Notes: generated from the letters alone by a model not told the origin. 32,000 bases of DNA from Candidatus Saccharimonadota bacterium (GCA_965231145.1 OZ246420.1:960001-992000), one strand, 5' to 3'. Shown: positions 15,111 to 32,000, counted from the stretch's first letter. Numbers and translations: made by a program.

Positions 15111-15137
15111 TTCGGAACACAAATAAAAAACTCCCTT

Positions 15138-15572
15138 ATGATACAAATAATATTTTTCCTCATCATTATTAAATTACTACTCAAACCTCGATCACATTTC
15201 TATCATGCAATAACTATCGATATAGAAGACCGTATTGATAAACTATGCAATAAGTGGCACACTCTATCAGAAGAAAAGAGAATAATAGAGATACGAAAGT
15301 TAACGCGCCACGTAGACGCATATATGGGAAAGCTCCCATACTACCATAAAAACATGAAATGGAATGATGTATGTTGTCGTTATGTCTTAGAGTATATCAA
15401 AAGGCTTTTGCAGGATAAGCAATTGGTATATCAAGCCGACCTCTCCGACTTCTATCAGGATGTCATCAATAGCATCAACCAACACTATCCTCCATACGCA
15501 GAGAAAGTAGTTAGCAAATATGTCTACTTTTCTATGGAAGAGAGCAAAGAAATTTCGACTACTGCAGAATGA
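15138..15572 (+). CDS. Hypothetical protein with an N-terminal hydrophobic segment (144 aa if TGA stops it)
   Basis: The ORF has no TAA, TAG or internal TGA in AT-rich DNA (MIQIIFFLIIIKLLLKP...). It ends on TGA at 15570-15572, 25 nt before a terminator hairpin. Under table 25 the frame stays open to TAA at 15921-15923. Confidence 0.5.
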   Translation: MIQIIFFLIIIKLLLKPRSHFYHAITIDIEDRIDKLCNKWHTLSEEKRIIEIRKLTRHVDAYMGKLPYYHKNMKWNDVCCRYVLEYIKRLLQDKQLVYQADLSDFYQDVINSINQHYPPYAEKVVSKYVYFSMEESKEISTTAE

Positions 15573-15592
15573 TGCGGTAGTTTTTTTATAAG

Positions 15593-15617
15593 AAAAAACG
15601 GCCGTGAGGCCGTTTTT
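15593..15617. terminator. Bidirectional terminator (AACGGCC-GTGA-GGCCGTT)
   Basis: Hairpin at 15597-15614 with an A-run before and a T-run after. It abuts the ABC exporter TAG (15618-15620). The 24-nt core is identical to 17774-17797. Confidence 0.7.
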
Positions 15618-17390
15618 CTACAACGATTGTTCATCTTTCATATGTATCTGATACTCTTTCCGCATATGAGCAAATCTTCCGTCGTTCTTAATAAGTTCTT
15701 CAAATGTTCCTGACTCAATTATTTTACCCTGATCAAAGACATGTATAGTTTCGAACATAGGAAGAAGATGCAATTTATGAATCGCAGCAACGATAGTCTT
15801 GTGGGGATATGCTTCAAAGATATTTTGATAGATCTTCTTTTCATTGATACTATCAACACTACTTGTTGACTCATCCAGAAGCAAGATGTCGCTATCATGA
15901 GATACCAGCAATCAACGAGCTAATGCTAAACGCTGCTTCTGCCCTCCTGATAAATTTACGCCTTTCTCTTTGATACTTGTCTCATAGCCATGAGCTAACG
16001 AGATCGCAACATCATGAAAACACGCCATGCGTGAAAACTTTTCAACTGTCGCGTCGTCTGTATCCAATCCTACAGTAATATTGTAACGCATCGAGTCTTC
16101 AAAGATCTCTGGCTCTTGCGGAATAAGTGATGTATTGTGAGAGAGAATATGCAAATGATCATAGTTCTTCTTATCAATCTGCACCTCTACATGATCAACA
16201 TCATACAGTCCGCGAAGAAGAGAAAGAAATGTTGATTTACCACTTCCACTTTCTCCAACAACTGCAATCTTCGCTCCATGATGAAGCGTCATATCAATAT
16301 GTTCAAGCGTGTGCGAGCGTTTATGCGAGTCCTTGTAGGTAAATTTCAATCCGCGAATAGCAATATTTTTTCGATTTTTTAAAGGAGCGAGCGTATTAAC
16401 TGCTGGAAGTGAAACATACTCCTGTATAATGTCTTCAGCTGCTTGCACATTTGCATGACTTTGTACTACGGCTGAATATTGCCATGCAAAGTTATAAAAA
16501 GAATTGGATACTTCCTGCATATACTGAAAGATCATCGTTAAGCTTCCTATAAGGATAACACCTGTAGCTGACCGCTGTATGTAAGCATATCATCCGATCA
16601 TAAGACCAATAGTAAGGGCAAGAATAATGCTTACAATAAACCGTTTCCACTCATTGATAATAATACGTTTTTTGAACAATAGGTATCTGTCTTCCAGCTT
16701 ATCTTTCACCACCCTCCATGTACTCTCCACAAATCTCAGCGTAATGATAGTTTTTATATTAGAAAGATAATCATAGATCAAACTACTTACTTTGTGATCT
16801 TTTTTGTGCTTCTGCTTTGTGAGATCTACAATACGAATATCAAAGCGTCGAATAATAAGAAAAATAGCAGCGGCCATGACCGGTAAGATAATAGCAGCAA
16901 AAGGCCATATCAGTATCAATGCTACAAACGAACCAACAAGTCATATAAATGTACCAAGATACATAAACATGTTTCCTGAGAAATCATAGACTCCAGACAC
17001 TGCTTTTGCTATCTTATCAATAGTCTCTCCTGAATGATTCTCGGTATGCCATGGTATGCCAAATGAAGTCACAGCCTTGAACAAATATAGCTTATAAGCG
17101 GCCTCTGTCTTAAATTGTAGCTTTTGTTCCCAGATACGAGAAGTTCCATGAAAGAGCCATGACACGAAAGGAACGAGCGTATAGAGTCCAAGATACGTGA
17201 TCATACTTCTTCGCATATCTGCGCCTCCTAACTGGATAGCATTGATCATCTTTCCCACAAAATATGGCGCAAGCAAGTTAACCATTTGTGATATAAATGA
17301 GAACGTCCGCATCAGAAGAGCCCATAGTCTGTTCGGCACAAAACGCCGATACAAACGTATCATCTGGATATAAGGATTCTTTTTAAACAT
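15618..17390 (-). CDS. ABC transporter, fused permease/ATP-binding exporter (type I exporter fold)
   Basis: Four track pieces (15618-15911, 15912-16535, 16590-16919, 16941-17390) form one frame of 1773 nt joined by 3 TGA. Motifs: Walker A GESGSGKST, signature LSGGQKQRLALAR[G]LL, Walker B ILLLDESTSSVD. The stop is TAG. Confidence 0.88.
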
Positions 17391-17420
17391 GAGAAAAATA
17401 ATAACTAAATGTATTATATA

Positions 17421-17711
17421 CTACCCACCTACTTGTTGTTTCCAATAGCTGCTTCCATCGATCTTACGATCGATATATTCTTTTATATATAGTTCTCTAC
17501 GAAGTAATGCCTCATCACCAAAGTGATGTCGTTGGCTCAATAATTCATTAAACTCTTTTTCAGAATATATTTTTTCAGGATCTATTTTCTCCGCAAGATA
17601 TGCTAATACGACCAATTGTTTACTTTGTTTTGAGGGTCGTTTTATCAGTTTACCATGCTCATCGAGAATTCACTTTATCAGAAAATAAGGATTTTCAGGT
17701 GTTAGAAACAT
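17421..17711 (-). CDS. DUF2087 domain protein
   Basis: The ORF runs from ATG at 17711 to TAG at 17421-17423 with one TGA: MFLTPENPYFLIK[G]ILDEHGKLIKRPSKQSKQLVVLAYLAEKIDPEKIYSEKEFNELLSQRHHFGDEALLRRELYIKEYIDRKIDGSSYW. It fits the DUF2087 pattern (G.l..fP.K.k....vL.yl...f.....Y.EkEvN.ll.....D.a.lRR.L). It lies 30 nt upstream of the ABC exporter. Confidence 0.65.
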
Positions 17712-17770
17712 TGAGATAAGTGAATAGGTATATAACTACCCCTATATACGAGCGACTTGACATTTTGTGA

Positions 17771-17797
17771 CAAAAAGAAAAAACGGCCGTGAGGCCG
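17771..17797 (-). terminator. Rho-independent terminator downstream of the PspC-domain gene
   Basis: Hairpin ACGGCC-GTGA-GGCCGT at 17782-17797, with an A-rich run at 17771-17781 (a T-run on the minus strand). Confidence 0.6.
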
Positions 17798-17875
17798 TCT
17801 TTTAAATACTGAATTAGTCCTTTTTTTCTCGCCTCCTCAATATGTGGTTTTCAAGTTTGAGTTTTAAGTTTTCAG

Positions 17876-19300
17876 TTAATTTTCTGGATACATAGGAGGC
17901 ACTCTATCAAGACCTTCTCTTTTTATCCTATCTTCAACAATTCACTCCATATCTATGTTATCATATGCGCGGTCATCCCGCACTCTATCGTTGCATGTAA
18001 ATTCATTTTGTTGACGATCATATACATAGACCTTTGCATCGCAGTATGATACTCTGACATTGGAAGCATCATTTTGCACTGACATATTTACTCTTCGGTT
18101 CTTATGGATGTAGACTTCTTTATCTGCGGGAATTGAGATGATAATATGTCTTTGCGTCATCCCAAGCGGTACTTCTTGTGAGAAAAGTTTTGCATTAGGC
18201 TGACGACCAACAGTAATATGATTTGCATCACCCGTCATAAGAAGTGGAACTAATTTTGATGCGCTATCCTGAAGCTGTGCATCGGACATGCCCTTGATAG
18301 TTGTTTCTACCTTAACTTCCATATTAGTTCCTGTTGTACGGATCAATATGACATCTGCATTTCCAAATCCGAAATCCCAGAAGTCACCATTGCTATTTAT
18401 CTTTGTCAGATCTATCGTCACACGATCTCCTGACACTGGAGATACCGGAAGTGTCATGTTTTCTGTCACTATGGTTTGATGTGACATGGCAAGCACCACC
18501 GTCTTGTAACCTGTTCCTATGGTCGCTACAACACCAAAAAGGATAACAACCCCTGCAAGCAAACCGAGCGCTTTATGGAGCCACCTCTGTTTGAAGAGAG
18601 ATCCGATCGCTCAGACAGACAGCAGAAGAAGTGCAACACTCATCAGTACTCCTACCAGATACATATACTGCGGAATCCAGGCAGCGATGGATTGGTTGTC
18701 TATCACTGGTGTAAAGAACATAAGCCCTGTTACGACAATAGTAGTAACAGTAGCTGGTACTAGAGCACTCAAGATGAAGAGCCAGAAAATCACACGAATA
18801 ATTTCAAACACTACATTTCCTATCGCTCATGTTGTTTTCCTTTTATCTTTGTAAGGAACAAACAATGCGAGGATAGCATACACGATCAATCACGTTCCAT
18901 TGAGCAATACAAGTATGAGGAAAATGATACGCATGATTCTGACTGATACGTTCATCGACTTTGCAAGCCAGTAACAAACTCCCCATATCATAGGTTTCTG
19001 TTTATCGATCCAGAGCGTTCTTTTAAATCTTGATGGTTGGTCTGTTAACTCATCGCTCTCGTCGAACATCACCTCAGGTTCACCAAGACTATTAGCGATC
19101 TCTATCACCTGTTTTTCAGTGATAGGTGTCTCATGACGATACAGTTTTTCAATGATACTGTATTTGATATCATCAATAACTTCACGCGAAATTTGATGCT
19201 CTGTCGCATAGCTTTCGATGCGTTCAATATATCTTGTAAGAAAATGATGAGCAGTATCTTCGAGCTCAAACAGGTGTCATAAAAGTGTATATTTTTTCAT
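17876..19300 (-). CDS. Membrane stress-signalling protein: N-terminal HAAS/DUF1700-like domain, PspC domain, TM segments, C-terminal beta-rich (toastrack/DUF4097-like) domain
   Basis: Track pieces 18890-19108, 18611-18811 and 17942-18562 share a frame (1425 nt) with 5 TGA. It runs from ATG at 19300 to TAA at 17876-17878. The PspC motif reads FKRTLWIDKQKPMIWGVCYWLAKSMNVSVRIMRIIFLILVLLNGT[G]LIVYAILALFVP. The HAAS-like N-terminus ends ...ITEKQVIEIANSLGEPEVMF. Confidence 0.8.
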
Positions 19301-19326
19301 GGCTGAACGATAATATATAAAAGGTA

Positions 19327-19656
19327 CTATTTCTGACGATCAATTTTCTTTACAGCACTAGCAAGCGTTCCCCATGTTTCACGCATAGCCCCAAGGATAT
19401 CTTTTCCCTTACTAGTAAGCGCATAATATTTTCTTGGAGGTCACTGTACTGACTCCACCCACGAATAGGTCACAAGCTTGTCGTCCTTCAAACGCGAGAG
19501 TAATGGATAAAGTGTTCCTTCCACGATAAGTAGACTACTCTCTTTGAGCGTCGCAAGAATATCTGATGCATACACTTCTCCCGCAGAGATGATAGCAAGT
19601 ATCAGATACTCGAGCACTCATTTTTTCATCTGCGTGCTTATTTTTTCGTATTCCAT
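19327..19656 (-). CDS. PadR-family transcriptional regulator
   Basis: Visible only under table 25 (110 codons, 2 TGA): MEYEKISTQMKK[G]VLEYLILAIISAGEVYASDILATLKE...VEGTLYPLLSRLKDDKLVTYSWVESVQ[G]PPRKYYALTSKGKD. These are the canonical PadR motifs GtlYp.L.rLe..Gl and RkyY.lT..G. The stop is TAG. Confidence 0.85.
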
Positions 19657-19995
19657 GTTTATACACTTACTTACTAAAATAATGTTAAATTCGAAATGCT
19701 GAATTCTAAATATAGTATGGTTTCAATTAATGATACCCTCCTTATTATATTTAAAATTTAAAATCTAGAATTTCGAATTATTATAGTACTATGTAACACA
19801 AGGTACTATAAGAACAAATATTATTTTTTCAAGAGAAAATGAAAAAATCACTTTGTAGTAGTACCGTTGCACGATAATATCTGGCTTATTTAAGCCGCTC
19901 TTATTGCATCCACTCTTTTTACGATTATAAGCGCGAACGTTATCTCGTTGGTCATTCACAATTCAAAAATAATCACAATTTAAAAACTTGAAACA

Positions 19996-20814
19996 ATGAA
20001 ACAGACAATTATTGCACTTCTTATTTTCACGCTCAGCGTGACATCATGCACCAAGCGTGACCCTTTTCCTGAAGGCGCGGTTGAGCCTTCGGCTCCCGCA
20101 AGCGAGACAAGCACACCCAATACACAGGCTAAAATAAGCGTCTCTGGCAGCAATGTGGAGTATCGTATCAACACAGTATACGAAAACAACTATGTACATT
20201 GCTGCCAGCTTGGCGTGAGCAATGGCGGCAACGCATGTGGCCCGGCTTCATATATGCTCGCAGCGCATATGGTTGCCGCCGGCAACGGCTGGAGTTTTAT
20301 GCCAAGCAATACGACTAAGCTGACGGCTATTGTGAATAACATCGGAGCGATGCCTATCGACATGGGGCAGATTAGCACCTATGTCTCTCGCTACGATGGT
20401 ACCTACCTGAAAACGACGACACGCATTACCACAGACCGGAATAACTTTAAAAGTTTTCTGGAAAACAGCCTGGCCACAGGCGACCCGGTAATAGTACCGA
20501 TACGCATCAGCGGAAGTTCTCGTGCAAATGATAGTCGCTATACGACGGAAAATAGTTCAAACAATTATGACTTGGATGGAAGCGATCAGTACGGACGACC
20601 AAACTATATAAATACGTCTGGCATCGGACACTTTGTTGTGGTGATAGGTATCAAAGTAATAGGTTCGACAGGCAACGGATACGTCTACTACAAAGATCCA
20701 CTCGCCTCCGGCGGTGCAACGAAAGTATGTGTCTATGGCCGCTTCCTCAACTCCGCCCTGGCAAATGGTGCCAGTAGTAGTTACTATGATGCCATCACTA
20801 TTAGTAAAAAATAA
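19996..20814 (+). CDS. Lipoprotein, papain-fold cysteine peptidase of the C39-like (C39_2-type) kind
   Basis: Intact ORF. The signal peptide plus Cys (MKQTIIALLIFTLSVTSC) marks a lipoprotein. The putative nucleophile is in GGNACGPASYMLAA and the His in IGHFVVVIG. The stop is TAA and there is no TGA. By eye it is GC-richer than its flanks, with an A/C-rich leader (CAATTCAAAAATAATCACAATTTAAAAAC). Confidence 0.7.
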   Translation: MKQTIIALLIFTLSVTSCTKRDPFPEGAVEPSAPASETSTPNTQAKISVSGSNVEYRINTVYENNYVHCCQLGVSNGGNACGPASYMLAAHMVAAGNGWSFMPSNTTKLTAIVNNIGAMPIDMGQISTYVSRYDGTYLKTTTRITTDRNNFKSFLENSLATGDPVIVPIRISGSSRANDSRYTTENSSNNYDLDGSDQYGRPNYINTSGIGHFVVVIGIKVIGSTGNGYVYYKDPLASGGATKVCVYGRFLNSALANGASSSYYDAITISKK

Positions 20815-20903
20815 CCCATCGATCAACGAGATACACAAAACAAAAACAAAAGTCTTCTGTTCCCAGGAGACTCCTTAGCGATTTAGCTTCTTATATATGT
20901 TCT

Positions 20904-21563
20904 ATGAAAAAATATATATTTGTACTTATTGCCTGCATCTCTTTCTCTTTAGCGTGATGCAGTATGCAAAGTGACACGGCAGAGGTGGTTGGCAAGAAAC
21001 GATATAAGCCCACTCACCCTCTCAGTGATGGTATGTGAGGAGATAGTTCATGAAGACTCTATGGAGAGTTTTCACGTTATAGCTCGCAAGAGTTATGAGT
21101 TTCTTTTGAGTACATTTCCGATGCATCAGTGAAATCAACTATTGATAGCGAAACAGTTATTGTTCGTAGCGGCAATACGCTCTCGACAAAAGATCAGTTT
21201 GGATCTCGTATTCTCATGCTCGTCTTTTCCGGAGCAAATATATGATGAGATACGGGAACTCTTGAAAAGCATTTTCGTCTTGCTGAGTATCCTTTGTGCA
21301 GGCTCACTGCTACTTCACCTATCACGAAACAAGAATGAACAAAAGCTAATAATAATTTCACATATTACGAATTACTCTTTTCCTGAACAGATTTTCCTCA
21401 AGACGGAAGCTCTTTTTGTCCTTATCAGAATCGCAGTAGCATAGTACCATTACTTATCACAGACAAAAAAATACCTAATAAAATAGTTATGACCTTTCTG
21501 TGTGAAGGTTGCGGCCCTGATCCAGACTTATCATGGATAGAAACTTTACAGATAGTAAAATAA
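20904..21563 (+). CDS. Lipoprotein of unknown function, readable only with TGA=Gly
   Basis: 219 codons free of TAA/TAG, with 8 in-frame TGA. The N-terminus MKKYIFVLIACISFSLA[TGA]CS gives a textbook lipobox L-A-G-C. The stop is TAA at 21561-21563. Track ORF 21142-21444 is in a different frame. Confidence 0.65.
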
Positions 21564-21573
21564 TTTTTTGTAT

Positions 21574-21597
21574 AAAAAAATCCTAGGAAACCCTAGG
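21574..21597. terminator. Bidirectional terminator (CCTAGG-AAAC-CCTAGG)
   Basis: Hairpin at 21582-21597, preceded by an A-run that is a T-run on the minus strand. It sits between the convergent genes 20904-21563 (+) and 21593-21808 (-). Confidence 0.55.
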
Positions 21598-21808
21598 GAG
21601 TAGTTGCGTAAGGTGGTTGATACTTTTTGCGTTTCTTTACATCGCGCTGAGCAATTGCTGCTTCTCGCTCTACATAATACTTATTTTCCGCATAGTACGG
21701 ATCGCCTGGTATATCCCCTCCTTCAGCATATTTGCTTTTATGAAGGCAAACAATAATGCTGAATAGCAGCATAGCTGCGAATGCTTGAAATATTTCTTTT
21801 TTGTTCAT
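21593..21808 (-). CDS. Hypothetical small membrane-anchored protein (71 aa)
   Basis: Intact ORF with a TAG stop and a hydrophobic N-terminal segment (AFAAMLLFSIIVCL). I recognise no family. Confidence 0.45.
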   Translation of the reverse strand: MNKKEIFQAFAAMLLFSIIVCLHKSKYAEGGDIPGDPYYAENKYYVEREAAIAQRDVKKRKKYQPPYATTP

Positions 21809-21914
21809 AGCGGACTTATTTATTGTTTTGTTTACGCGTAAATGATACGCACAAAATACTACTTTTCAAGTGTTTTTATCGCACCATAAAAAAGCTCGCG
21901 GAGTACCAACGGTC

Positions 21915-22103
21915 CTACGTGAATGACATACGAAAAAGGACAGGAATAACATTCCTACCGCAGGCAGGTCCTGTCCCCACCAAAATGGATCTAAAATATT
22001 ACGTCCCTACAACCCAACATATTAAACGGACGCATTATTGATGCGTCCCTACAAACGATTCTACGTGAATTATATACGCAAAAGGACAGGAATAATCCTG
22101 TCC
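21915..22103. repeat. Cluster of REP-like palindromic elements (two hairpin types, each followed by CTAC)
   Basis: A 35-nt direct repeat occurs at 21915-21949 and 22061-22095 (4 mismatches). Hairpin GGACAGGA..TCCTGTCC occurs at 21938-21976 and 22084-22103. Hairpin GGACGCAT-TATTG-ATGCGTCC at 22028-22048 is followed by CTACAA. The GGACGCA/TGCGTCC palindrome recurs at 31543-31849 next to and inside the RAYT-like gene. Confidence 0.6.
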
Positions 22104-22122
22104 CTACCATATCAAATATTTA

Positions 22123-23670
22123 TTATTTCTCATCTCTTATTTCATCTAATACCTTCTGATAAATACATACCATCGCCCATGTATCTTGTTTACAGTACTC
22201 TAACAGATCCTGAATATGTTTGTTGCATACATCTGTTTCATACCTACCCTGGACGATCCCGGCCAGCAGCTCTGCTGCGATGGCGCCGTGTAGGACTGCG
22301 AGTCCGTCGTATGAGATGTCAGTGAGCACCGGTAAGACTTTTTTGATAGATGATGATCCGTGAAATTTACGATGGAAATATAATTGTTCGCTGAAGATTT
22401 CCATGAGGTCGAAAGTTTTTTCATTGATCTTTGCAAACACTTCTGCATATTGCGGATAGTGTTTCGCCATCTCGTCGTTTCTTGCATTTTCAAATCCCTT
22501 GAACCAGACAACGTACGTTCCTTCACCCCCTTCCAGATCTTGCACAAGCTGCTCCACGATCGTCTCGTTATCCTTCGCGCCCGCACCCACAATCGCCTCT
22601 TTATGCGAGATCGTTCCATCTTCATCCATGCGATGCACAGAGTACTGCACCACGCACTGCTGCCATGGAGATGTTCATTCAAGCAGCGGCACCGGCCATG
22701 CGATCGTTTCATAGTCGTAGAAAAATATCGGAAAATGGATGCTCTCCATTTTTTGTTTGATGCCATCGACATTAACAACTTTCTCTCACTGTTGCCATAG
22801 CGATACGTAATTACTCGCTCTTGTTTCATCGCCGCTCGCCGCGAAAAGCACCGCCCTCTCATCTTCCGTAAAATGATCAATCAGTTGTTTTCCTATCTCA
22901 TACAGATCTTTTTTCTTATTTCTAATCTGCGGGATATACCACATCGTTCCCTTTTCAGCCTCCTTCCCAAAAAACGTTAGATGATCTTCGTTATCGTATG
23001 GATAAAGCTTGGTGAACTCCTCTCTTTCCAGCTTGATTGTCTTCGTCATCGAGTCGATGATATTGAGCATCGCTTCTTCTTTTTTGAGTTCCGCACTCAC
23101 GTCTTCACGAAGCAACAGCTCTTCAGGATTTATCTCTCCGTGTCTGACATACTCTTTATTCATATATACCAAAAATATTTTTCCTGAATATTTTTCTTTC
23201 AATACTCTCCTCACGATAAAATCCTGAAAACTCACATCCGCTTGTAGATCATCTAATAGCTCCGCTGACTTCGTCTTTTTTCTTACGCCGTTTTTTGCTT
23301 TCACCTCCCGGATGTCATACGTTCCTTCTGCATTTTTTACGAGAAAATCACACTTTGCAAAAAGATTATCCAACAGAAATGCTGGTTGATAGATCACATC
23401 CGGAGACTGTGCAATGGCTTCGAGCGTGACATTATGAAATCACTGATACCAGTCAGGATGCTTACGCTGGATCTTATCGACATTCACAATATTTTTTCAT
23501 GCAAAAAGACGACAGACCTGTTCCTCAGCAGCTCTTCCGACCGCCAAACCATCCATCTCTCCATAGAGCTTTTCCATAATTTTCTCATACACGTTTTTAT
23601 CATGCACATGCCACCACGCAACATGTGGTGCTGTGACGAATTCGACGAAGAGGGATTTGGTAAGTTTCAT
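22123..23670 (-). CDS. DUF2779-family protein (PD-(D/E)XK-like nuclease N-domain + RNase H-like/exonuclease-like C-domain)
   Basis: Track pieces 22786-23397 and 22123-22653 plus the gaps form one frame of 1548 nt with 4 TGA. It runs from ATG at 23670 to TAA at 22123-22125. Family hallmarks: HFPIFFYDYETIAWPVPLLE[G]TSPWQQCVVQYSVH and FHGSSSIKKVLPVLT..SYDGL. Confidence 0.8.
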
Positions 23671-23705
23671 AGATAGCGATAGTAATTAATAATAAACTCT
23701 ATTTC

Positions 23706-24584
23706 TTATAATGCTACTACTCTTAATAAAACCTCTTTCCAATTTGATGACATCCTCATATGTGAGATTTGGACATGAGAATGTTTTTTTAATAACACTT
23801 CTAGCTTCTTTATAAAGTTCTTAGGTTTTGAATTAGCATGTTTTAAAAGCACGACAATTACTATAGCGTATGAAAAGAAGGAATCAGCATCCTGAAAAAA
23901 ACTAGTGTAATTATTATTGCTTACTTTTAATTTTCACGTCATTGTTTTGTTCCAAAGCCTATCATGATGAGCACAAATATTTCTCATATGAGCTAAACAT
24001 CGCATTCGATTTTCATAGACGAGAAAGTATAATTGCGACACACTACTAATCTGCATCTGATATTGTGGATTGAGGCATTTGTAAATCGACACAGCCTCAC
24101 CAAATGACGCTATCTGTAGAATAATCCAAATAGGTGGATATGGCGGCGCGTTATAAGTTTTGTAATAATGCCTAACGGTATAATGATCTTTATTTTTTTC
24201 TACGATATCTTTTATTTTTTTCTCTAAACGAGGGAAGTCTTTAAAGAGTTGTGAATTAAGGTGATAAAAAGATCCATCTAATTCTCAGATTTCACGTATT
24301 AATGCGGATTTAAAAGAATTTTCTATGATTTCAAGATACTCTACACACAAAGATCTTAATTTTTTATCAAACTCATAAAGCTCTACGAGGTGATCAAAAG
24401 TAACATCTTTTTGAAAACTATCATCGCTGTTTTGATAAGCTTTTGCATAAATAGAAATACGATAGTATCCCACATTTTTCAAATACCACACTACTTTTTT
24501 AGTCTTGGATATTATCAATCACCTACTATGAAATAGGCTTATTTGCTGGTCAACTGTAAGTATTGGCTTTATATAGTCAGTCAT
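23706..24584 (-). CDS. Abi_2 family (AbiD/AbiF-like) abortive-infection-type protein
   Basis: 293 codons in one frame with 3 TGA, from ATG at 24584 to TAA at 23706-23708. Motifs: LKNVGYYRISIY, LYEFDKKLRSL, and the family signature MRNICAHHDRLWN. Confidence 0.8.
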
Positions 24585-24766
24585 ATCTTTATATTTTCCT
24601 TTTTAAAAACTTGCAATATGAATAATATTCATTAATATAGTTACATCAATATCTGCCAGCCTCTGCTTAACGGCATGCCAACCGGGCAGATTTTTGTTAT
24701 ATAAATTTTTACGTTATCACTTATTCTACCCATTCCCATTAAAATAACAATCTCACACTACAGTTC

Positions 24767-24794
24767 TTGACATTTATTGGAAGAAGATTATCAT
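24767..24794 (+). promoter_or_regulatory. Cassette promoter 1: TTGACA-N16-TATCAT
   Basis: TTGACA at 24767-24772 and TATCAT at 24789-24794, then the leader TCATCAAAAAAC, with ATG at 24824. Confidence 0.5.
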
Positions 24795-24823
24795 ATCGGT
24801 TCATCAAAAAACATAACTAATTT

Positions 24824-26002
24824 ATGAAAAGAAAATTATTTGTACCCCAAACCATTACGGTTCCTACTGTAGCAGGAGATGGCATTGGCAAAGAAATTAT
24901 GCCCGCTATTATCGCCATACATATGGCAGCAAGCTCCCCCATCCACTTTGCAACCGGCTATATGCTCGGCCAGCAGTCTCTGGATATGGGCGGTATGCTT
25001 ATACCAAAGGAACTGACAGATGCCTTTACGAAGCATAAAATTCTGTTCAAAGGCCCTCTGGCAACACCTAAAGGGAAAGGCCATAAAAGCATCAACCTGA
25101 CTCTCAGGGACATGTTCAACCTGCATACCAACTTCCGGCCAGTTACTTCACTACCCGGTATCACTACCAGGTTCAGCCAACTAACAGGCGCCATTATGGA
25201 CCTTATCCCCTGGCGTAATCAGAGCGTGGACATCGTAGTATTCCGCGAGAATACGGAAGATCTTTACAAGAACACTGAAGAGTTTTCCGGCGACAATGAA
25301 GATGCTACCATCACATTTAAGCTTTCGAAGGCGGCTGCGCGCAAGATACTTACTTCAGCAGCAGAATATGCTATAAAGGCCGGGCGCAAAAAGATAACCT
25401 TCATCCACAAGTCAAACATCATAAAGGCATATGGCCTCTATATAGATGTGATGACCAAAGAGATAGCGCCTCAATACCCTGACCTACAGTTCGAGGAATA
25501 TGTAGTGGATGCTTACTGTGAGAAAGTGGTAATGGATCCTACCAGGTTCGATATTGTTGTTGCCCCGAACCTTTTTGGCGACATCGTGTCTGACCTGCAT
25601 TTGGGCCTCATCGGCGGTCTTGGCTTTGGCCCTGGCGCCAACCTCGGCGACGAATACGCTATGTTCGAGGCCATACATGGCTCTGCTGACGGCACAGATG
25701 GCATAGCCGGCAAAGGCATTGCAAACCCTACCGGCATGCTCCTTTCCAGCGTACTTATGCTGGAACATGTGGGCGACTACATCACAGCAGAACGCATAAA
25801 AAGTGCGTTGTTCTATGTGCTGGAGCACAAGAAAGACGCCTGTACTCCGGACTGTCTGGGCGATGTGGACAAAGCCGTAAAAGCCGCTCATCCCGGCACT
25901 ACTGCCACGATGGAAGCGGCCATCATCGCTGCTCTCGCAGATACCCACCGCACCTTCAACCAGGAGTGGCTGGAAGCAAGCGGCGCTGCAGTGACGGCAT
26001 AA
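24824..26002 (+). CDS. icd: Isocitrate dehydrogenase-like protein (isocitrate/isopropylmalate dehydrogenase family)
   Basis: Intact 392-aa ORF. IDH-type substrate motif KSINLTLRDMFNLHTNFRP (cf. E. coli SLNVALRQELDLYICLRP). Other motifs: VVFRENTEDLY, IHKSNIIK, NLFGDIVSD, GANLGDEYAMFEAIHGSA...AGKGIANP. The stop is TAA and there is no TGA. It looks GC-richer than the backbone. Confidence 0.85.
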   Translation: MKRKLFVPQTITVPTVAGDGIGKEIMPAIIAIHMAASSPIHFATGYMLGQQSLDMGGMLIPKELTDAFTKHKILFKGPLATPKGKGHKSINLTLRDMFNLHTNFRPVTSLPGITTRFSQLTGAIMDLIPWRNQSVDIVVFRENTEDLYKNTEEFSGDNEDATITFKLSKAAARKILTSAAEYAIKAGRKKITFIHKSNIIKAYGLYIDVMTKEIAPQYPDLQFEEYVVDAYCEKVVMDPTRFDIVVAPNLFGDIVSDLHLGLIGGLGFGPGANLGDEYAMFEAIHGSADGTDGIAGKGIANPTGMLLSSVLMLEHVGDYITAERIKSALFYVLEHKKDACTPDCLGDVDKAVKAAHPGTTATMEAAIIAALADTHRTFNQEWLEASGAAVTA

Positions 26003-26046
26003 CTTTTTGCCATTGGTACCTATAATATCCTATTATGCCCCCGGAA

Positions 26047-26071
26047 ATCCGGGGGCTTTTTCTTATGTTAC
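26047..26071 (+). terminator. Rho-independent terminator of the icd-like gene
   Basis: GCCCCCGG-AAAT-CCGGGGGC at 26047-26066, followed by TTTTT. Confidence 0.75.
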
Positions 26072-26254
26072 AATTACTTTAGTTCTCGGATAGAATACAC
26101 AGACACAACCAAAAACTATCATTATGCAAGCAGCCCCAATACCTACCTGCTACCTTATATCCAATCTCCTTTGTGAATTAAGGTACCAAGCGACCAACTT
26201 ATGGGCATAGCCCACCCACAGTAAAGCCTGTATTGTACGTGCCTTTTCTTATGG

Positions 26255-26283
26255 CTGACATTTCAGCACAAATTTCTTACAAT
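26255..26283 (+). promoter_or_regulatory. Cassette promoter 2: cTGACA-N17-TACAAT
   Basis: CTGACA at 26255-26260 and TACAAT at 26278-26283, then the leader TCAAACAAAA at 26292-26301. Confidence 0.45.
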
Positions 26284-26317
26284 TCTTCTCGTCAAACAAA
26301 ATGATCACCCATAAAAT

Positions 26318-27127
26318 ATGCTATGTATGGAAATGAAAATCAAAATAACGGGGAAACCACTTGTACTTAACACATTAGACAATCTCCAGCCAAACAAAAA
26401 GGTATGGTTGTCGCATGAGTCTTTGCTCTTTACCAAAACAAACGATTTCTACATCTATAAGAAAGCCCAATTTGTAGGCCGGGCATCTCCGGATAATGGC
26501 TATATTGTTCCTGTCGAGCTTGACGAAGAAGGATATCTGAACGTATGCTTTAAAGAAATACGCTTTGCCTTTAACATGAGCGATGACAAAGAGCTCAAAG
26601 ATGTTGATATCAATGAATATCTCCATCTTAGCAATGTAGAAATGGAAAAACAAAAAGACGACAGGGATTGGATTAGAAGATCAATGATAGACGACTTGTT
26701 CCAGTCTTTCAGTCTTTGCCTTCTCAACGATCTTTGTCCCATGGAGAACTTACTTTGTATCCATGAGACATTGTTGGATCGCATAGTGAGTTGTGAAGAT
26801 AAGGATTTATTAGAAGACCTTGTCGAATTCTGCTCACGAAATTTCAAGGAAGAAAGCCTTATTGCATCATCAGATGAACAAGCTGAAGCTTTGGAACAAA
26901 ACCTGGAATTGCTCACTGCCAAATTACACAAAAGAGTCGATGAAGTCCAAAATTTATTAGACTCTTTAAAAGTCGTCGCCACAGAACGTGTCGCCCTTTT
27001 GCCTCAGGAAGAGACAGAAGAGAGCATGCAAAAAGATCTCGATACAGCAATAGCACAAGAAGACTACAACAAAGCTGTTGATATAAGAAATAACATGCTG
27101 GGAAAGGGGTTTAAGCCTAACAGTTGA
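26318..27127 (+). CDS. Hypothetical protein (about 266-269 aa) with a C-terminal UVR-like motif; stops on TGA
   Basis: Intact ORF with possible starts at 26318, 26327 and 26333. The C-terminus MQKDLDTAIAQEDYNKAVDIRNNM resembles the UvrB/UvrC/McsA UVR motif (M..A....dfE.AA.lRD.i). The stop is TGA at 27125-27127, 20 nt before the terminator. Confidence 0.7.
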   Translation: MLCMEMKIKITGKPLVLNTLDNLQPNKKVWLSHESLLFTKTNDFYIYKKAQFVGRASPDNGYIVPVELDEEGYLNVCFKEIRFAFNMSDDKELKDVDINEYLHLSNVEMEKQKDDRDWIRRSMIDDLFQSFSLCLLNDLCPMENLLCIHETLLDRIVSCEDKDLLEDLVEFCSRNFKEESLIASSDEQAEALEQNLELLTAKLHKRVDEVQNLLDSLKVVATERVALLPQEETEESMQKDLDTAIAQEDYNKAVDIRNNMLGKGFKPNS

Positions 27128-27146
27128 AATAGAACAAGTTATTACA

Positions 27147-27170
27147 AGCCCCGTTATTCGGGGTTTTTCT
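27147..27170 (+). terminator. Rho-independent terminator of cassette 2
   Basis: CCCCG-TTATT-CGGGG at 27149-27163 with extending A-T/G-U pairs and a T-run, running into TTTTTCTTTTA and the next -35. Confidence 0.7.
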
Positions 27171-27174
27171 TTTA

Positions 27175-27203
27175 TTGACATTTCCTAATATAAAAGTTAT
27201 CAT
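27175..27203 (+). promoter_or_regulatory. Cassette promoter 3: TTGACA-N17-TATCAT
   Basis: TTGACA at 27175-27180 and TATCAT at 27198-27203, then the leader TCAAACAAAAAGACAAACCT, with ATG at 27227. Confidence 0.5.
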
Positions 27204-27226
27204 TGCTCAAACAAAAAGACAAACCT

Positions 27227-28030
27227 ATGGAAAAAAATGGTATATTAGCTCGACCTTTTATAAAGGATATTTCTAAGGGAAAGGTATTTTACTGCAATCC
27301 CGACATCTCTGTAGTAGTATTCCCTGAGGATAAATTAGTGTATTTGTGCCCTTATGGAGAAGCTTCACAAACATACAATAAGGAACTAAACCTTATTTGT
27401 CCTATCCAAAAAATTGATGGTAGCGTTATTCTCATGCCAGATACTGTGTATGTGCATACCGCATATCATAAAAGCCAAAAGAAAATCATGGAAAGCATTA
27501 TTGATTGGTATCAGCTACCTACTCACATCACTATCACCGGTAATATACCGTCACCAATAGACTTACCTTATGAAGCAATGGACGTACTCTCTCTCGAGAG
27601 CTATCTAACAGATTGGCTGACAATTTGTGAAGACAATAAAAGAAAACCTGTAAAAGTAGAAGAAGTTCTTACTATTAAAAAAGTTTTTCTGAAAAAGATC
27701 GAGACTGAAACGAACAAACAAACACTCATCGAAACATGGAACAATGTAGAAGTATCTCTAAACGAATTCAATGACGAATCCACGCAAGCGCTACTACATG
27801 AGATACACCAATCACTATCAAACAGGCTTTTGACTCTCGGTAGTAGAAAGGCATCTAGAAACGCAAAAGATAAAATTCCTTTAGAAGAATCCTCTCTATC
27901 TGATCTAAAGACGAATTTTAATGCCTACACTAAAGAAGAATTTGACGCTTTTCTAAGCGGATTAGATGGAGACGCAAGCGAAACTGCATTAGCAATAGCC
28001 CAATACATACGAGACCATCGCCCAAATTAG
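27227..28030 (+). CDS. Hypothetical protein (267 aa)
   Basis: Intact ORF. The track starts it at TTG 27203, but ATG 27227 fits the leader spacing of the other cassettes. The stop is TAG. I recognise no family. Confidence 0.7.
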   Translation: MEKNGILARPFIKDISKGKVFYCNPDISVVVFPEDKLVYLCPYGEASQTYNKELNLICPIQKIDGSVILMPDTVYVHTAYHKSQKKIMESIIDWYQLPTHITITGNIPSPIDLPYEAMDVLSLESYLTDWLTICEDNKRKPVKVEEVLTIKKVFLKKIETETNKQTLIETWNNVEVSLNEFNDESTQALLHEIHQSLSNRLLTLGSRKASRNAKDKIPLEESSLSDLKTNFNAYTKEEFDAFLSGLDGDASETALAIAQYIRDHRPN

Positions 28031-28060
28031 ATCAACAAAATTTTATTATCACAACATCTT

Positions 28061-28085
28061 AAAACCGGTCATGTACCGGTTTTTC
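28061..28085 (+). terminator. Rho-independent terminator of cassette 3
   Basis: AAAACCGGT-CATGT-ACCGGTTTT at 28061-28083, then TTTTTCTTATTC. Confidence 0.7.
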
Positions 28086-28091
28086 TTATTC

Positions 28092-28119
28092 TTGACATCT
28101 TTTTTTAAAAAATTATCAT
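28092..28119 (+). promoter_or_regulatory. Cassette promoter 4: TTGACA-N16-TATCAT
   Basis: TTGACA at 28092-28097 and TATCAT at 28114-28119, then the leader TCAAACAAAACCAATCGT, with ATG at 28145. Confidence 0.5.
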
Positions 28120-28144
28120 TTCCGGGTCAAACAAAACCAATCGT

Positions 28145-28714
28145 ATGAGCAAAACACTATTTAACATATTTCCTCTAGGAGGAAATGGCTCTGTGAGCTT
28201 TATATGCGCTGATGCAGACGCATCCGCAGACGTGATAGACATTGCCAATAGCAACGGTCAATCACCTTTTACTATATCCATGATAGGATGTCAACCCATG
28301 TGGTATGTCATACCGATATGTGCTTGTAACCCTATCATAGCAGTTACACATGAATACGCACTAGAAACCAACCAGGTTGGTTCTCTCTTTGCTCTGGTTG
28401 AATCTCTGTTGTCAGCGGGAGAACAACTGTATAACAAAAAACAGCGTTGCTTTGATGATGCTGTTCCCGGACATCGTGTTCTGATAGAAAATGGTAAGAG
28501 CAAAATCATCCGGAGCGAGGCGAGATTCACAAAAAATATAGTGGACGAATGTCTGTCTATAAAAAGCGTTCGAACATTCTATGAGAAACTACAGACGCAG
28601 GTATTAACTTCTGCAGATATAGATGCATTTGTACATACGTTTGTAGATTGTGGAGAAAAGGTAACAGGTCGTCTCATGGAGCAATCTGGCAATGCTGTAG
28701 TTGCGCAGAACTAA
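28145..28714 (+). CDS. Hypothetical protein (189 aa)
   Basis: Intact ORF with a TAA stop. I recognise no family (MSKTLFNIFPLGGNGSVSFICADADASADVID...). Confidence 0.7.
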   Translation: MSKTLFNIFPLGGNGSVSFICADADASADVIDIANSNGQSPFTISMIGCQPMWYVIPICACNPIIAVTHEYALETNQVGSLFALVESLLSAGEQLYNKKQRCFDDAVPGHRVLIENGKSKIIRSEARFTKNIVDECLSIKSVRTFYEKLQTQVLTSADIDAFVHTFVDCGEKVTGRLMEQSGNAVVAQN

Positions 28715-28732
28715 GAAAATATATGTCTATCT

Positions 28733-28760
28733 AAAAGCCCCGACATCTCGGGGCTTTTTT
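28733..28760. terminator. Bidirectional terminator shared by cassette 4 and mutS
   Basis: AAAA-GCCCCG-ACATCT-CGGGGC-TTTTTTTT. The hairpin ends 6 nt before the mutS TAA (28761-28763), separated only by the T-run. Confidence 0.75.
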
Positions 28761-31448
28761 TTATTTATCTATCTCGTCTTTCAACTTATTGAGCAGCAGC
28801 AATGCTTGCATCGGAGTCATGTTATTCGCATCGATCGAATCAATGATTCTCTTCATCTTATCGTACTTTGCTTTCGTCTCGATCGCTTCAAAGTCTACTC
28901 ATCAAAATAATCCTTCGACTTTTAATTTTGCACTCTGATTTTTGGATTCTGAATTTTCGAGCGAAGCAAGATATCTCTTCGCCTGATCAGTGATCACCGT
29001 CGGGATTCATGCGATCTTAGCTACATCGAGTCCATAACTCTTACTCGCTCCTCCAGCAACAATTTTTTTCATAAAGACAACTTCTTTGTCTGTTTCATAT
29101 ACAGAGACAGAATAATTTTTCACTCACGGAAGTTGTCACTCTAAAGAAATCAACTCATGATAGTGTGTTGCAAACAAGGTCTTTGCACCTGTCTTTTCTG
29201 CGATATACTGGACGATAGCCTGTGCGAGCGCAAGTCCGTCATACGTTGAGGTTCCACGCCCAAGCTCATCTAAAATAATAAATGATTTTGATGTCGCATT
29301 GTGCAAGATATTTGCCATCTCGATCATCTCTGTCATAAACGTCGATTGATTTTTCGCGATCACGTCTCCACTTCCCACGCGAGCAAAGAGTCCATCTACG
29401 ACTGGCACAGATGCTTCGGTCGCAGGGACATAGAGACCGCATTGAGCAAGAAGAATGATAAGAGCGTTTTGCCTCAGATAGGTCGACTTACCTCACATAT
29501 TCGGTCATGTGATAATATGCAGACTGCCAGTGTCACCCGATCCTATTTGCAGATCATTTGCTATGAACTGCTCATGCACCGGCAGATATTCTTCAATAAC
29601 TGCATGACGTCCTCCGACAATACGTAGTTCTCCATTTGTCATAAGCTTTGGCCTCGTCCATCTTTTCTCTGCGACAAACAACGCATGTGTGACATACAGA
29701 TCGAGCCACGCAATCCCATCGGCGAGCTGTGTCAGCACTTTTGCTGCGTCAATAATTTTTTCTTTTGCGATAAGAAGCTGTGCCTGCTCTTTTGTCTTGA
29801 GCTGAAATTGTGCAGCGAGGATCTTATGCTGCAGCTCTTCGAGATATGGCGTGATATAACGCTCACCCGTTTTGAGTGTCTGGCGACGGATGAAATCAAA
29901 CTTCGGATCGCCCTTCACACATCCCGCTTCAAAAGCCGCTATATCCTTCGGAGTCACTTCAAGAAAATATCACTGATTGCTCACGTACTTCACTTTCACG
30001 TTGGCAACATTTGTATGAGTCACCACTTCCTGCTGATACGCGATCAACATCTCATCACTATGATACGCTATCTTTCTCAGCTCATCGATCTCCGGATCAA
30101 ACCCATCTCTAATATAATCTATTTCATCATTCAATCCTTCTTCCTTCAAAAGTTGATACAAATATTCATATAACTCTTCTCCTTTCTTCAATACTTCGTC
30201 TTCGACTCAGAGCACTTTCAGTGCTGATTTTATCCCTTGCCCCTTATCCCTTGTCAATGATTCCTCCAACCTTAACTCCGCTCTTTGCTCTCTGCTCTCT
30301 CAGTTTGATGGCGAATTAAATATAAGCGACAAAGCATATCTGAGCTTTCCTAGCGTTGTCGGATTGTGTTTCTTGTAGATAATAAGCGACATGATTTTTG
30401 GGATATCAAGCATGTGACCGAGCGTCTGTGCGATACTTTGTGCATCATCGCGATGAGAGATATAGTAGTCGACATGCTGTTGACGCTCGGAGATGACAGA
30501 AAGATTTTTTGTCGGACGTGTCAGCACTTCGCGAAGAAGCCTTGCGCCAAGTGATGTTTTTGTCTGATCGATAACGCCGAGCAATGAGTATTTTTTTGCA
30601 CCATCGTAGTGCGAGGCGAAAAGCTCGAGGTTTTTTATCGTCACGTTATCGAGCAGCACCGCGTCGGTTGAGTTATCGTACGAGACAGAGATAATAGTAT
30701 GGATGCTTCATTTTTGTACGCCGCGAAGATAGTGGACGAGTAAGCTGAATGCATATTTCCTACCGTCCTCAAGCGCCTTTCCAAACGAATTCAATGACTG
30801 CACACCAAAGACAGACTGCAGCAATAAGTCTGCATCTGATGGCTGATCGTATGTCGAAACAAGGCAGTGGGAAAAATTGTGCATATGATTTTCGAGTTCT
30901 CACTTCTGGGGAAAATCAATATCGACGACGATCTCCGCAGGAGACAGATTCAGTAAAAATTTTAAGAGTTCATCGATAGATGAAAAACTTTGCGTCCAGT
31001 ACTGCCCGACCGAAAAGTCACCCCACGCGAGGTGATAGTTTTGGAGATCTCCTCCGGAGTATGCAACCGCCGTGATGTATGAAAATTGTTTCTGTGACTC
31101 CTGAATATACGTTCCCGGCGTGATAACTGCCGTCACCTCACGCTCAACAATCTGCCCCGGCTTTGGCTCACTCACCTGCTCACCTATAGCAACTTTGTAG
31201 CCATGCGCCACCAGTTTCGCGATATACTTCTCTGCACTATGATATGGCAATCCCGCCATAGGAACTGGATTTGCACTATTTTTATCACGAGACGTGAGCG
31301 TCAGATCTAAGAGCTTTGAACAGATCTTTGCATCTTCATAAAACGTCTCATAAAAATCTCCCATACGAAAAAAAAGAATGCAGTCTTTATACTGCGTCTT
31401 CATGTCCATATACTGCTTTTGTGCCGGCGTCAGCTTCTCCGTATTCAT
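28761..31448 (-). CDS. mutS: DNA mismatch repair protein MutS
   Basis: Five track pieces (30900-31448, 30300-30659, 29970-30191, 29505-29957, 29136-29408) plus the gaps form one frame of 2688 nt, with 12 TGA and no TAA/TAG. N-terminus: [36 protein letters not shown]. Walker A: IIT[G]PNM[G]GKSTYLRQ. Also [14 protein letters not shown] and FATHYHEL. The stop is TAA. Confidence 0.92.
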
Positions 31449-31514
31449 GCCCTGATTGTACGGAAATAGCGGGTAAGCTCAATATTAAAAAATCCAATGA
31501 AATTATGCATATAA

Positions 31515-31530
31515 GCGCATTATAATGCGC
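31515..31530. repeat. Perfect 16-bp palindrome GCGCATTATAATGCGC
   Basis: It lies just downstream (on the minus strand) of the RAYT-like stop. It may be a terminator or a REP-type hairpin. Confidence 0.3.
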
Positions 31531-31535
31531 CTTCT

Positions 31536-32000
31536 TTAGAGAGGACGCAAAATATTGCGTCCGTACAATTCTCGCCATTTCATCGGATTTTCCTGGATAT
31601 ATTTTTTTATACGATCATATTCGATTTCATTTCTAATAATATGGTCGTGGTAACGACCATGCCGGGCGAATGAAATATGATTATTTTTCGCGTATTTCAT
31701 TACACCAATTTTAAACCCACGAATAATTGCTCACAACGATCATGATGCACATTCATATTTATTTTTTTCTCGGTATTGTACGGACGCATTATCATGCGTC
31801 CTTTTTATTTTATTTATTTTTTTATCATTGGACGCAAAATATTGCGTCCCCACATCGCACCTATTTACTATCAATATCCCATGGACGTGATTGGGCATAC
31901 AAATAAATTCATCTATTTCAACATACGGATAATGGGTCGGAATATCCTTTCGACACTTCCAAGCCACGCGACCCAATTCATTCAACCTCATCACCCCATT
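31536..32000 (-). CDS. IS200/IS605-like HUH (Y1) transposase family protein, REP-associated tyrosine transposase (RAYT)-like, COG1943-type; the 5' end is outside the window
   Basis: One frame with 2 TGA: ..NGVMRLNELGRVAWKCRKDIPTHYPYVEIDEFICMPNHVHGILIV...CAS[G]SL[G]AIIRGFKIGVMKYAKNN..FARHGRYHDHIIRNEIEYDRIKKYIQENPMKW. It has the HUH motif (HVH), GSLGAIIRGFK, and YDHIIR...Y(I)..NP. The stop is TAA at 31536-31538. Confidence 0.8.
31543..31562. repeat. REP-like palindrome GGACGCAA-AATA-TTGCGTCC followed by GTACAAT
   Basis: It lies inside the last codons of the RAYT-like CDS, where it is read as GRNILRP. Confidence 0.6.
31782..31801. repeat. REP-like palindrome GGACGCAT-TATC-ATGCGTCC, preceded by GTAC (ATTGTAC) on the plus strand
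   Basis: It lies inside the RAYT-like CDS, where it is read as RTHDNAS. On the minus strand it is followed by GTACAAT, as copy 31543-31562 is on the plus strand. Confidence 0.6.
31830..31849. repeat. REP-like palindrome GGACGCAA-AATA-TTGCGTCC (20 nt identical to 31543-31562)
   Basis: It lies inside the RAYT-like CDS, where it is read as GTQYFAS. Confidence 0.6.

Follow-up and report, generated by a model that had tools for sequence, protein, structure and literature searches.

A 32,000-nt stretch of the 1.1-Mb genome of a Candidatus Saccharimonadota bacterium (OZ246420.1:960001-992000, called the window below) contains a block of plus-strand genes, bounded by a DUF2779 gene and its Abi_2 neighbour on one side and by mutS on the other, that is probably an old, lineage-specific hyperplastic gene array. 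The array resides between DUF2779 and mutS in a clade of candidate phyla radiation (CPR) bacteria in which TGA encodes glycine, and its repeated junction modules would both insulate and drive the genes and supply homology for recombination. All comparisons are based on five or six genomes, namely the window, its code-25 relatives L001, L130, L131 and L132, and L003, a short contig that contributes a single junction; transcription and recombination are inferred. Five gene families, F155, F226, F269, F288 and F189, were defined in the arrays.

The first-pass annotation of this DNA proposed a comparison of synteny in relatives, and the DUF2779-mutS interval was indeed conserved in L001, L130, L131 and L132. 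The arrangement DUF2779(-), three to seven plus-strand genes, mutS(-) was found on every contig carrying relatives except L003, where only the F226/F269 junction is available. The gene orders are icd, F155 relic, F269, F288, F189 in the window; icd, F155, F226, F288, F189 in L001; F155, F269, F189 in L130; F155, F226a, F226b, F269 (split), F288, F189 in L131; F155, F189, F288 in L132, where the order is altered; and F226, F269 in L003. An additional unknown gene of 332 aa lies between the array and mutS in L001.

The junction module and its conservation

Four plus-strand genes between minus-strand Abi_2 and mutS genes, each built as a stand-alone promoter-leader-ORF-terminator unit with near-identical junctions, had been described in the first-pass annotation, and at the sequence level this description is supported (Table 1). 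All four open reading frames (ORFs) are present. Putative sigma70-like promoters of the form TTGACA-N16/17-TATCAT occur three times in the 32 kb, all within the block (at 24767, 27175 and 28092), where 0.06 would be expected, and none of 100 shuffles reached three; the deviating promoter of the second gene, CTGACA-17-TACAAT, was located at 26255. The leader motif TCAAACAAAA follows three of the -10 boxes as an exact copy (at 26292, 27207 and 28127), with one further, unrelated copy in the window at 22751 on the minus strand. The hairpin and T-run terminators predicted at 26037, 27146, 28061 and 28733 rank near the top of the terminator-like sites in the scanned part of the window (14000-32000), and the last of them lies directly against the mutS stop, as had been noted, where it is probably a two-way terminator.

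The relatives share the junction form hairpin-TTTTTCTT-TTGACAT-N-TAYCAT-(C)AAACAAAA. As a consensus, a hairpin is followed by TTTTTCTT(W)T, a -35 box TTGACAT, 15-17 nt and a -10 box TAYCAT; the A/C-rich leader, which begins with (T)CAAACAAAA or a close variant 3-9 nt past the -10 box, then leads to the start codon without a Shine-Dalgarno sequence. Since the spacing of the A/C-rich motif is maintained relative to the -10 box and not to the ATG, we regard this motif as part of a promoter or initial-transcript module. The junction hairpins have GC stems of 5-9 bp with T-runs, and a hairpin with a T-run, at -8 to -19 kcal/mol, is found at 22 of the 24 array gene ends.

It is clear from the alignments that these junctions are under constraint. 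Cores are identical at 0.86-0.95 of positions between the window and L001 and at 0.82-0.95 between the window and L130, whereas four-fold sites of the flanks (DUF2779 and MutS) are identical at 0.61 for the first of these genome pairs and at 0.51-0.53 for the second. Even bases of the spacer or hairpin loop are retained, CTTTTTTTAAAAGAC in three genomes and CCCCGTTATTCGGGG in two. Conservation this far above the silent-site level argues for purifying selection that reaches spacer and loop bases. Between distant genomes the sequences of orthologous hairpins differ and the pairing is kept by compensatory changes; the stem of the F226 hairpin occurs as GCCCGCA/TGCGGGT, CCTGGT/ACCAGG and CTCGGT/GCCGAG. 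When the region before icd is compared between the window and L001, similarity sets in at the -35 box, with 86% identity from there to the ATG and 67% in the 60 nt upstream of the box.

The modules could be just the standard strong promoters and terminators of the organism, packed tightly in a 1.1-Mb genome, and the indels between arrays ordinary deletions; a series of short genes on one strand, each transcribed by itself, would then be enough to give the appearance of cassettes. Parts of the grammar are indeed found elsewhere, as a similar hairpin, T-run and TTGACA[T/C] precede the gene for leucyl-tRNA synthetase (LeuRS) and the gene at 6364-6843, mutS has a sigma70-like promoter of its own (TTGAGC-16-TACAAT), and the pattern TTTTTCTT-N2-4-TTGACAT-N14-17-TATYAT gave single, chance-like matches in at least 119 unrelated genomes when 185,579 reference genomes were scanned. 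The arrangements before LeuRS and 6364-6843 indicate that part of the grammar belongs to the ordinary intergenic signals of the genome. The strict composite pattern, however, matches 14 times in approximately 80 kb from five genomes, and 13 of these matches are array junctions although the arrays cover only about 17 kb. The single outside match (6850-7075; hairpin CCCGCTAGAAATAGCGGG, TTTTTTATTA, TTGACAC-17-TAACAT) precedes the TGA-free 6364-6843 gene (159 aa), which is unrelated to the five families by hhalign. In addition, the spacer and loop bases mentioned above are kept at a silent identity of the flanks of 0.51-0.61, and three independent cassette joints fall in the same 18-20 nt core (see below). 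The earlier concern that the junction motif might be generic is therefore borne out for the looser grammar, which is of the common sigma70/intrinsic-terminator type and recurs at LeuRS and in other genomes, and not for its density, uniformity and conservation, which are special to the arrays. We consider it rather unlikely that tight packing and ordinary deletions account for the whole.

A hairpin at 24651-24696, which had been read as the tail of a lost unit marking the left border, was rejected as a cassette relic, as it has no counterpart in the relatives and folds no better than shuffles (z = -1.09).

Table 1 Features of the array block and its flanks in the window.
Feature	Position	Strand	Basis and remarks
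DUF2779 gene, left anchor	22123-23670	-	Pfam DUF2779 1e-36; four in-frame TGA read as Gly; beside the array in L001, L130, L131 and L132
AbiD/Abi_2 abortive-infection gene	23706-24584	-	Pfam Abi_2 1.8e-44; PADLOC AbiD 1.7e-60; variable slot between DUF2779 and array head
Predicted head promoter TTGACA-16-TATCAT with A/C-rich leader (TCATCAAAAAAC), now driving icd	24767-24823	+	Promoter scan; comparison with L001
icd-like beta-decarboxylating dehydrogenase gene	24824-26002	+	Pfam Iso_dh 4.9e-75
Predicted icd terminator hairpin, 8 GC pairs, then TTTTTCTTAT	26037-26066	+	-19.4 kcal/mol
Decayed F155 cassette	26067-26252	+	Weak promoter, leader CAACCAAAAAC, 28-codon ORF (26124-26210), stop/terminator relic (26222-26233), T-run
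Predicted F269 promoter CTGACA-17-TACAAT, leader containing TCAAACAAAA	26255-26317	+	Promoter and motif scans
F269 family gene, 269 aa	26318-27127	+	Homologues P0002 (49%), L130, L131; probable start 26333
Junction: F269 hairpin, TTTTTCTTTTA, predicted F288 promoter TTGACA-17-TATCAT, leader TCAAACAAAA	27146-27226	+	Hairpin and core 95% identical to L130
F288 family gene, 267 aa	27227-28030	+	Aligns with L001 (288 aa), L131 (279 aa), L132 (277 aa)
Junction: F288 hairpin, TTTTTCTTATTC, predicted F189 promoter TTGACA-16-TATCAT, leader TCAAACAAAA	28061-28144	+	Hairpin to -10 box 95% identical to L001
F189 family gene, 189 aa, F226 paralog	28145-28714	+	Four true relatives among 1.84 billion representatives
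Terminal hairpin with A-run and T-run on its sides, abutting mutS stop	28733-28760		-15.5 kcal/mol; equivalent in L130, L131 and L132
mutS, right anchor	28761-31448	-	12 in-frame TGA

Gene families and cassette-wise change

The arrays differ by whole cassettes, and the joints lie within the core from TTTTTCTT to TTGACAT. In L130 the F269 terminator (CCCCGTTATTCGGGG, identical to that of the window) continues via TTTTTCTTTTGTTGACAT into the F189 promoter (CTTTTTTTAAAAGACTATCATTTCCG), which is the one present in the window and L001; in the window F288 sits between the two, so that the same F189 promoter stands behind different terminators in the two genomes. In L001 the F226 terminator is fused to the F288 promoter, and in the window only both ends of F155 are kept. 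This last case had been described as a degenerate fifth unit, and it is indeed a relic: the F155 cassettes of L001 and L130 can be aligned with its promoter and leader, and the bases at 26222-26233 (TAAAGCCTGTAT) correspond to the L001 F155 stop codon and the beginning of its terminator, from which we conclude that an F155 cassette has lost its middle. The N-terminus of the relic ORF, MQAAPIPTCYL, resembles METPNVLFTCYL. Two junctions in L131 have the same hairpin and promoter spacer, pointing to homogenisation.

Profile comparisons with hhalign identified F189 and F226 as full-length paralogs (94.7%, E 6e-8), and F269 and F288 are possibly paralogs as well (37%, E 3.5e-4), while the 38 other family pairs, including controls, scored at most 2%; F155 was rejected by the same comparison as a paralog of F226 or F189. 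The F189/F226 paralogy together with the tandem F226 copies of L131 indicates that the array grew by whole-unit duplication, and judged by these alignments at least one family pair has been shown to arise from duplication of a complete unit. In the L131 array (2261-4593), which holds the tandem copies, F269 is interrupted by a stop, and the annotated F226a start falls inside the F155 terminator; the real start is probably at about 2338, behind a normal junction.

The array genes change much faster than their surroundings. Between the window and L001 the DUF2779 proteins are 94% identical (rate of nonsynonymous substitution, dN, 0.039; synonymous, dS, 0.83), as compared with 55% for icd (dN 0.38), 57% for F189 (dN 0.33) and 28% for F288 (dN 0.84). 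Between the window and L130 the flanking proteins are 81% (DUF2779) and 84% (MutS) identical, both with dN 0.12, and the array proteins 38% (F189, dN 0.63) and 41% (F269, dN 0.55). The array ORFs thus change 5-20 times faster than the flanks, yet they stay open. Their silent sites are also more diverged, with identities of 0.41 for icd and 0.37 for F189 against 0.61 for the flanks.

On the proposed reading as a hyperplastic array, the modules would give each gene strong transcription of its own, with the T-tract of one terminator doubling as an upstream element for the following promoter. The 20-40 bp of module sequence that the cassettes share would be portable homology for RecA-type recombination, which would delete, duplicate or exchange cassettes and spare DUF2779 and mutS.

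Judging from database searches, the five families are new protein families. Protein searches returned one or two relatives for each of three array proteins among 5.8 billion proteins, and each of the five families has at most about five relatives in sets of 1.8-5.8 billion; P0013, a 1,724-aa repeat protein matching the F189 profile, was set aside as repeat-amplified. None of the five families gave a significant match in Pfam, NCBIfam, PHROGs, PADLOC or PDB sequences, where only sub-threshold noise was seen, and the earlier statement that the three unknown proteins of the window could not be placed in any family thus holds. The UVR-like motif that had been noticed in the 269-aa protein did not hold up as a domain; of four family members one gives a match, which at 14 bits (E 0.042) stays below the cut-off of 21.5, and the structural model shows a confident C-terminal helical hairpin only. 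AlphaFold models of F189 and F269 are rich in beta structure towards the N-terminus and helical towards the C-terminus, a layout that we tentatively extend to all five families; these are presumably cytoplasmic, since no signal peptide or membrane segment was seen by eye (no predictor was used).

The rapid change of the proteins and the Abi genes accumulating beside the array lead us to guess that the five families act in some conflict, either with phage or with a host cell. A stronger version would regard the genes as a multi-gene anti-phage defence, counter-defence or immunity system in an arms race, with the cassette structure incidental. Abi genes do occupy the adjacent slot, AbiD in the window and one for an AbiA-type reverse transcriptase (RT) in L001, dN is raised 5-20 times over the flanks in ORFs that are kept open, and families are paralogous. 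PADLOC, however, gave no match up to E 0.1 for any of the four block proteins of the window, profile searches of the five families detected no enzymatic or nucleic-acid-binding domain, and the array is not sporadic but occurs in every relative found, with a gene number (3-7) that would be odd for an obligate complex. A dedicated defence system therefore appears improbable.

Coding, origin of the block and weight of the evidence

Backbone genes of the window are interrupted by TGA under table 11 and intact once TGA is read as sense. The Walker A motif of MutS becomes ITgPNMgGKS with TGA as Gly, which identifies TGA as glycine; the host reads TGA as glycine (code 25). Reassignment of CGA/CGG to Trp was ruled out, since CGG occurs at conserved Arg positions in icd and in the gene for pyruvate phosphate dikinase (PPDK), and no further reassignment is therefore evident.

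The lack of TGA in the block, pointed out in the first-pass annotation, was confirmed with no TGA in 1,117 codons, and it extends to the array ORFs of six genomes (none in 4,505 codons, 181 of them Gly codons, icd excluded), whereas in flanking genes TGA makes up 21% of Gly (74 in 5,867 codons). As silent sites are near saturation, this absence in the arrays needs selection. It is, however, shared by other genes: pyruvate kinase (PK), enolase, PPDK and the genes at 6364-6843, 12954-13601 and 19996-20814 are TGA-free, as are DUF4407, nrdB and nrdA in L005, another assembly. The genes fall into two sharp classes, exemplified by 28761-31448 and 3440-6244 against 7076-12752. In the TGA-using class, with LeuRS, MutS, DUF2779, AbiD, an ABC transporter and others, every gene has at least three TGA; about half of the neighbouring genes are TGA-free. 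Since neighbouring chromosomal genes share the trait, it is not evidence of foreign origin. Leaders of TGA-free genes are generally A/C-rich and without Shine-Dalgarno sequences; the region in front of PPDK (12753-12953) contains a short upstream ORF and an A/C-rich leader of some length (AAAACAAACAATAAATCAATTAAACAATCAATTAAAAACAATTCAAAAAACAAAGAACAATT).

The bounds of the 269-aa gene given in the first-pass annotation stand for the ORF as such and not for its two ends. Translation probably starts at 26333, because the homologues begin MKIKI, MNIRI or MQIKI, and the terminal TGA, located precisely where the homologues have TAA or TAG, is not a stop in this host. The product should therefore run on for 22 codons to a TAA ending at 27193, which would add GNRTSYYKPRYSGFFFYGHFLI; this predicted extension (27125-27193) spans the gene's own terminator hairpin and the -35 box of the next gene.

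A foreign origin, for instance as phage morons, a prophage or satellite remnant, DNA from a standard-code donor or a code-neutral phage block, takes up the earlier suggestions of phage-moron-like units and of a laterally acquired block. It would agree with the TGA-free codons of the block as opposed to the backbone, with the orphan nature of its genes, with the TGA at the end of F269, with the description of TGA-free, code-11-compatible phages of Gracilibacteria (PMC10746230), with the foreign codon usage and GC content (0.50) of icd, and with the presence of the Abi gene next door, which was confirmed as AbiD. On the other hand, five code-25 genomes with 79-94% identity among their backbone proteins have the array at the same chromosomal position, and the more these proteins differ, the more the array has diverged. 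In codon usage the array genes F269, F288 and F189 correlate with the backbone at 0.80, and PK, enolase, PPDK, nrdA and nrdB are TGA-free too. The genes annotated in the window and at the related loci include neither an integrase nor a phage structural gene, and searches of 1.84-5.8 billion proteins yielded no more than 4-5 related sequences. Alignment scans of IMG/VR with F269, F189 and F288 returned no relatives, and none were found in PHROGs; for INPHARED, icd was the only query. With the icd C-terminal pattern and the 20-nt junction core, IMG/VR yielded a chance match (L126) and three single matches (L127-L129), and JGI metagenome scans with the F189 and F269 alignments gave nothing and then solely the known L003. 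Taken together with the lack of relatives in PADLOC, these results speak against a moron or a recently acquired block as the origin of the three genes, and foreign DNA in any of these forms strikes us as very unlikely.

That the block might be an assembly chimera of two organisms, as the rise of GC to 0.50 in icd and the absence of the neighbours' TGA codons could suggest, is ruled out. Two assemblies from different sequencing runs, L005 and L006, agree with the window at every base over 13,856 and 6,123 nt, both borders included, and five related genomes have the same flanks.

The icd gene and the neighbouring Abi genes look like later additions, icd on account of its codon usage, with GGC as 27 of 33 Gly codons and a correlation with the backbone of 0.445. 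Of the five arrays, just two contain it, those of the window and L001, and it would have been placed under the head promoter in one sub-lineage. Its sequence puts it firmly in the isocitrate/isopropylmalate dehydrogenase family (Iso_dh 253 bits against a cut-off of 27), with the catalytic motifs SIN..R, RENTE, HK.NI, NLFGDI.SD and HGSA kept, and it is closest to small NAD-dependent isocitrate dehydrogenases (IDHs); the best PDB match was the NAD-IDH 6m3s (2.7e-73, aligned over residues 10-346). No NCBIfam equivalog cut-off was reached that would fix the substrate. The protein carries an insertion and, at 25870-26002, a tail of some 45 residues at its C-terminus that solved IDHs lack. The last 14 codons (NQEWLEASGAAVTA) are almost identical in DNA between the window and L001 (4670-4798), and the proteins are 55% identical overall.

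Between DUF2779 and the array head, the window has AbiD, L001 the AbiA-type RT (1630-3540, 1.4e-54) and L130-L132 no gene at all. With DUF2779 94% identical between the window and L001, the different Abi genes mark this slot as a defence-gene hot spot. Chromosomal neighbours of the block are LeuRS, PK, enolase, PPDK and MutS. In the gap before DUF2779 (21904-22110), of which 21 nt are exactly common to L001, a unit of about 60 bp occurs twice at a spacing of 146 bp (46 nt at 87% and 14 nt at 93%); it contains the hairpin GGACGCATTATTGATGCGTCC, and a near-identical hairpin, GGACGCATTATCATGCGTCC, lies upstream of mutS (31782-31801). Rfam and tRNA scans of the window found nothing.

Several points weigh against the interpretation as a recombining, strongly expressed array. 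Promoters, terminators and monocistronic transcription are all read from the DNA, and similar signals are found before LeuRS and the gene at 6364-6843. No more than 10 nt separate the array genes F189 and F288 in L132 (5152-5733), and the two are probably co-transcribed, so that self-containment is not obligatory. The codon usage of the three array genes is not shifted towards that of PK and enolase, and high expression is therefore not shown. Cassette loss by recombination is deduced from three or four joints and not from observed events, and the scaling of array divergence with that of the backbone fits vertical descent, with no direct sign of exchange between lineages. The structural models are of low confidence, with a predicted local distance difference test (pLDDT) score of 65.6 for F189 and 59.4 for F269, and a Foldseek search of both against PDB gave no match at E <= 0.001.

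For the organism, the arrays mark five new, fast-evolving families as likely players in its interactions and provide candidate strong promoters, leaders and terminators for a lineage without genetic tools, and the sharp division of a code-25 genome into genes with and without TGA is relevant to the question of how cells tolerate a reassigned stop codon.

Comparison with known systems

Phage morons are autonomous promoter-ORF-terminator units of lambdoid prophages, sporadic and often of deviant composition. At the level of sequence the cassettes resemble them in having a self-contained unit for each gene. However, morons are single insertions between phage genes, whereas the cassettes are chromosomal, syntenic in five genomes and, except for icd, backbone-like in codon usage. 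Integron cassettes are mostly promoterless and accompanied by an integrase and attC sites. The array shares with integrons the short genes on one strand, the repeated hairpin junctions and the cassette-wise gain and loss; in contrast, its genes have putative promoters of their own, its hairpins are short T-run terminators and not attC sites, and no integrase is present among the annotated neighbours (DUF2779, AbiD, MutS). Integron arrays have been discussed alongside the promoter early stem-loop (PeSL) cassettes of phages (PMC2839356).

TGA-free phages readable under code 11 have been predicted to infect Gracilibacteria and Absconditabacteria (Liu et al. 2023, PMC10746230). Like the array, they have genes without in-frame TGA that can be read in both codes; unlike them, the array has no phage genes, and about half of its chromosomal neighbours are TGA-free too.

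The closest analogue is the PeSL terminator/promoter cassette, which T4-type phages have in their hyperplastic regions (Arbiol et al. 2010, PMC2839356; Comeau et al. 2014, PMC4122927), an analogy that we draw from the layout of the modules. In both cases a composite module has a GC stem-loop, an A/T-rich tract and sigma70-type -35 and -10 boxes in the same order, here in the junctions 26037-26106, 27146-27203 and 28061-28119 and likewise in L001, L130, L131, L132 and L003. In both, short orphan genes with such modules on their sides form a cluster bounded by conserved core genes (here DUF2779 and mutS, in five genomes), the modules are conserved and the ORFs variable, and joints of indels or replacements fall in the module, as seen in L130, L001 and the F155 relic of the window, few joints being available. 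The differences are that the array is chromosomal in a code-25 CPR bacterium and not part of a phage genome with early promoters, that it is held at one locus across the clade with the same five families in a mostly fixed order, and that its module also includes a conserved A/C-rich leader. For PeSLs, recombination between neighbouring motifs is known to yield mini-circles of ORF and motif, and promoter and terminator activity has been demonstrated in reporter assays; for the array such activities are predictions from sequence. Because of its cellular setting and since no phage relatives were found in IMG/VR or PHROGs, we do not count the array as a PeSL member.

It is tempting to go further and regard the junction modules as the cellular counterpart of PeSLs, a recombination-expression scaffold with which a parasitic code-25 bacterium turns over conflict proteins. 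The absence of TGA would then keep the cassettes readable in both codes, for exchange with, or expression from, standard-code phages or host cells, and the higher silent-site divergence of the ORFs (identities of 0.37-0.41 against 0.61) would reflect import of alleles via the junctions. We regard this extended scheme as a speculation with a small chance of being right. So far, composite terminator/promoter cassettes have been described for T4-type phages, and a chromosomal counterpart would show the same design arising in cells.

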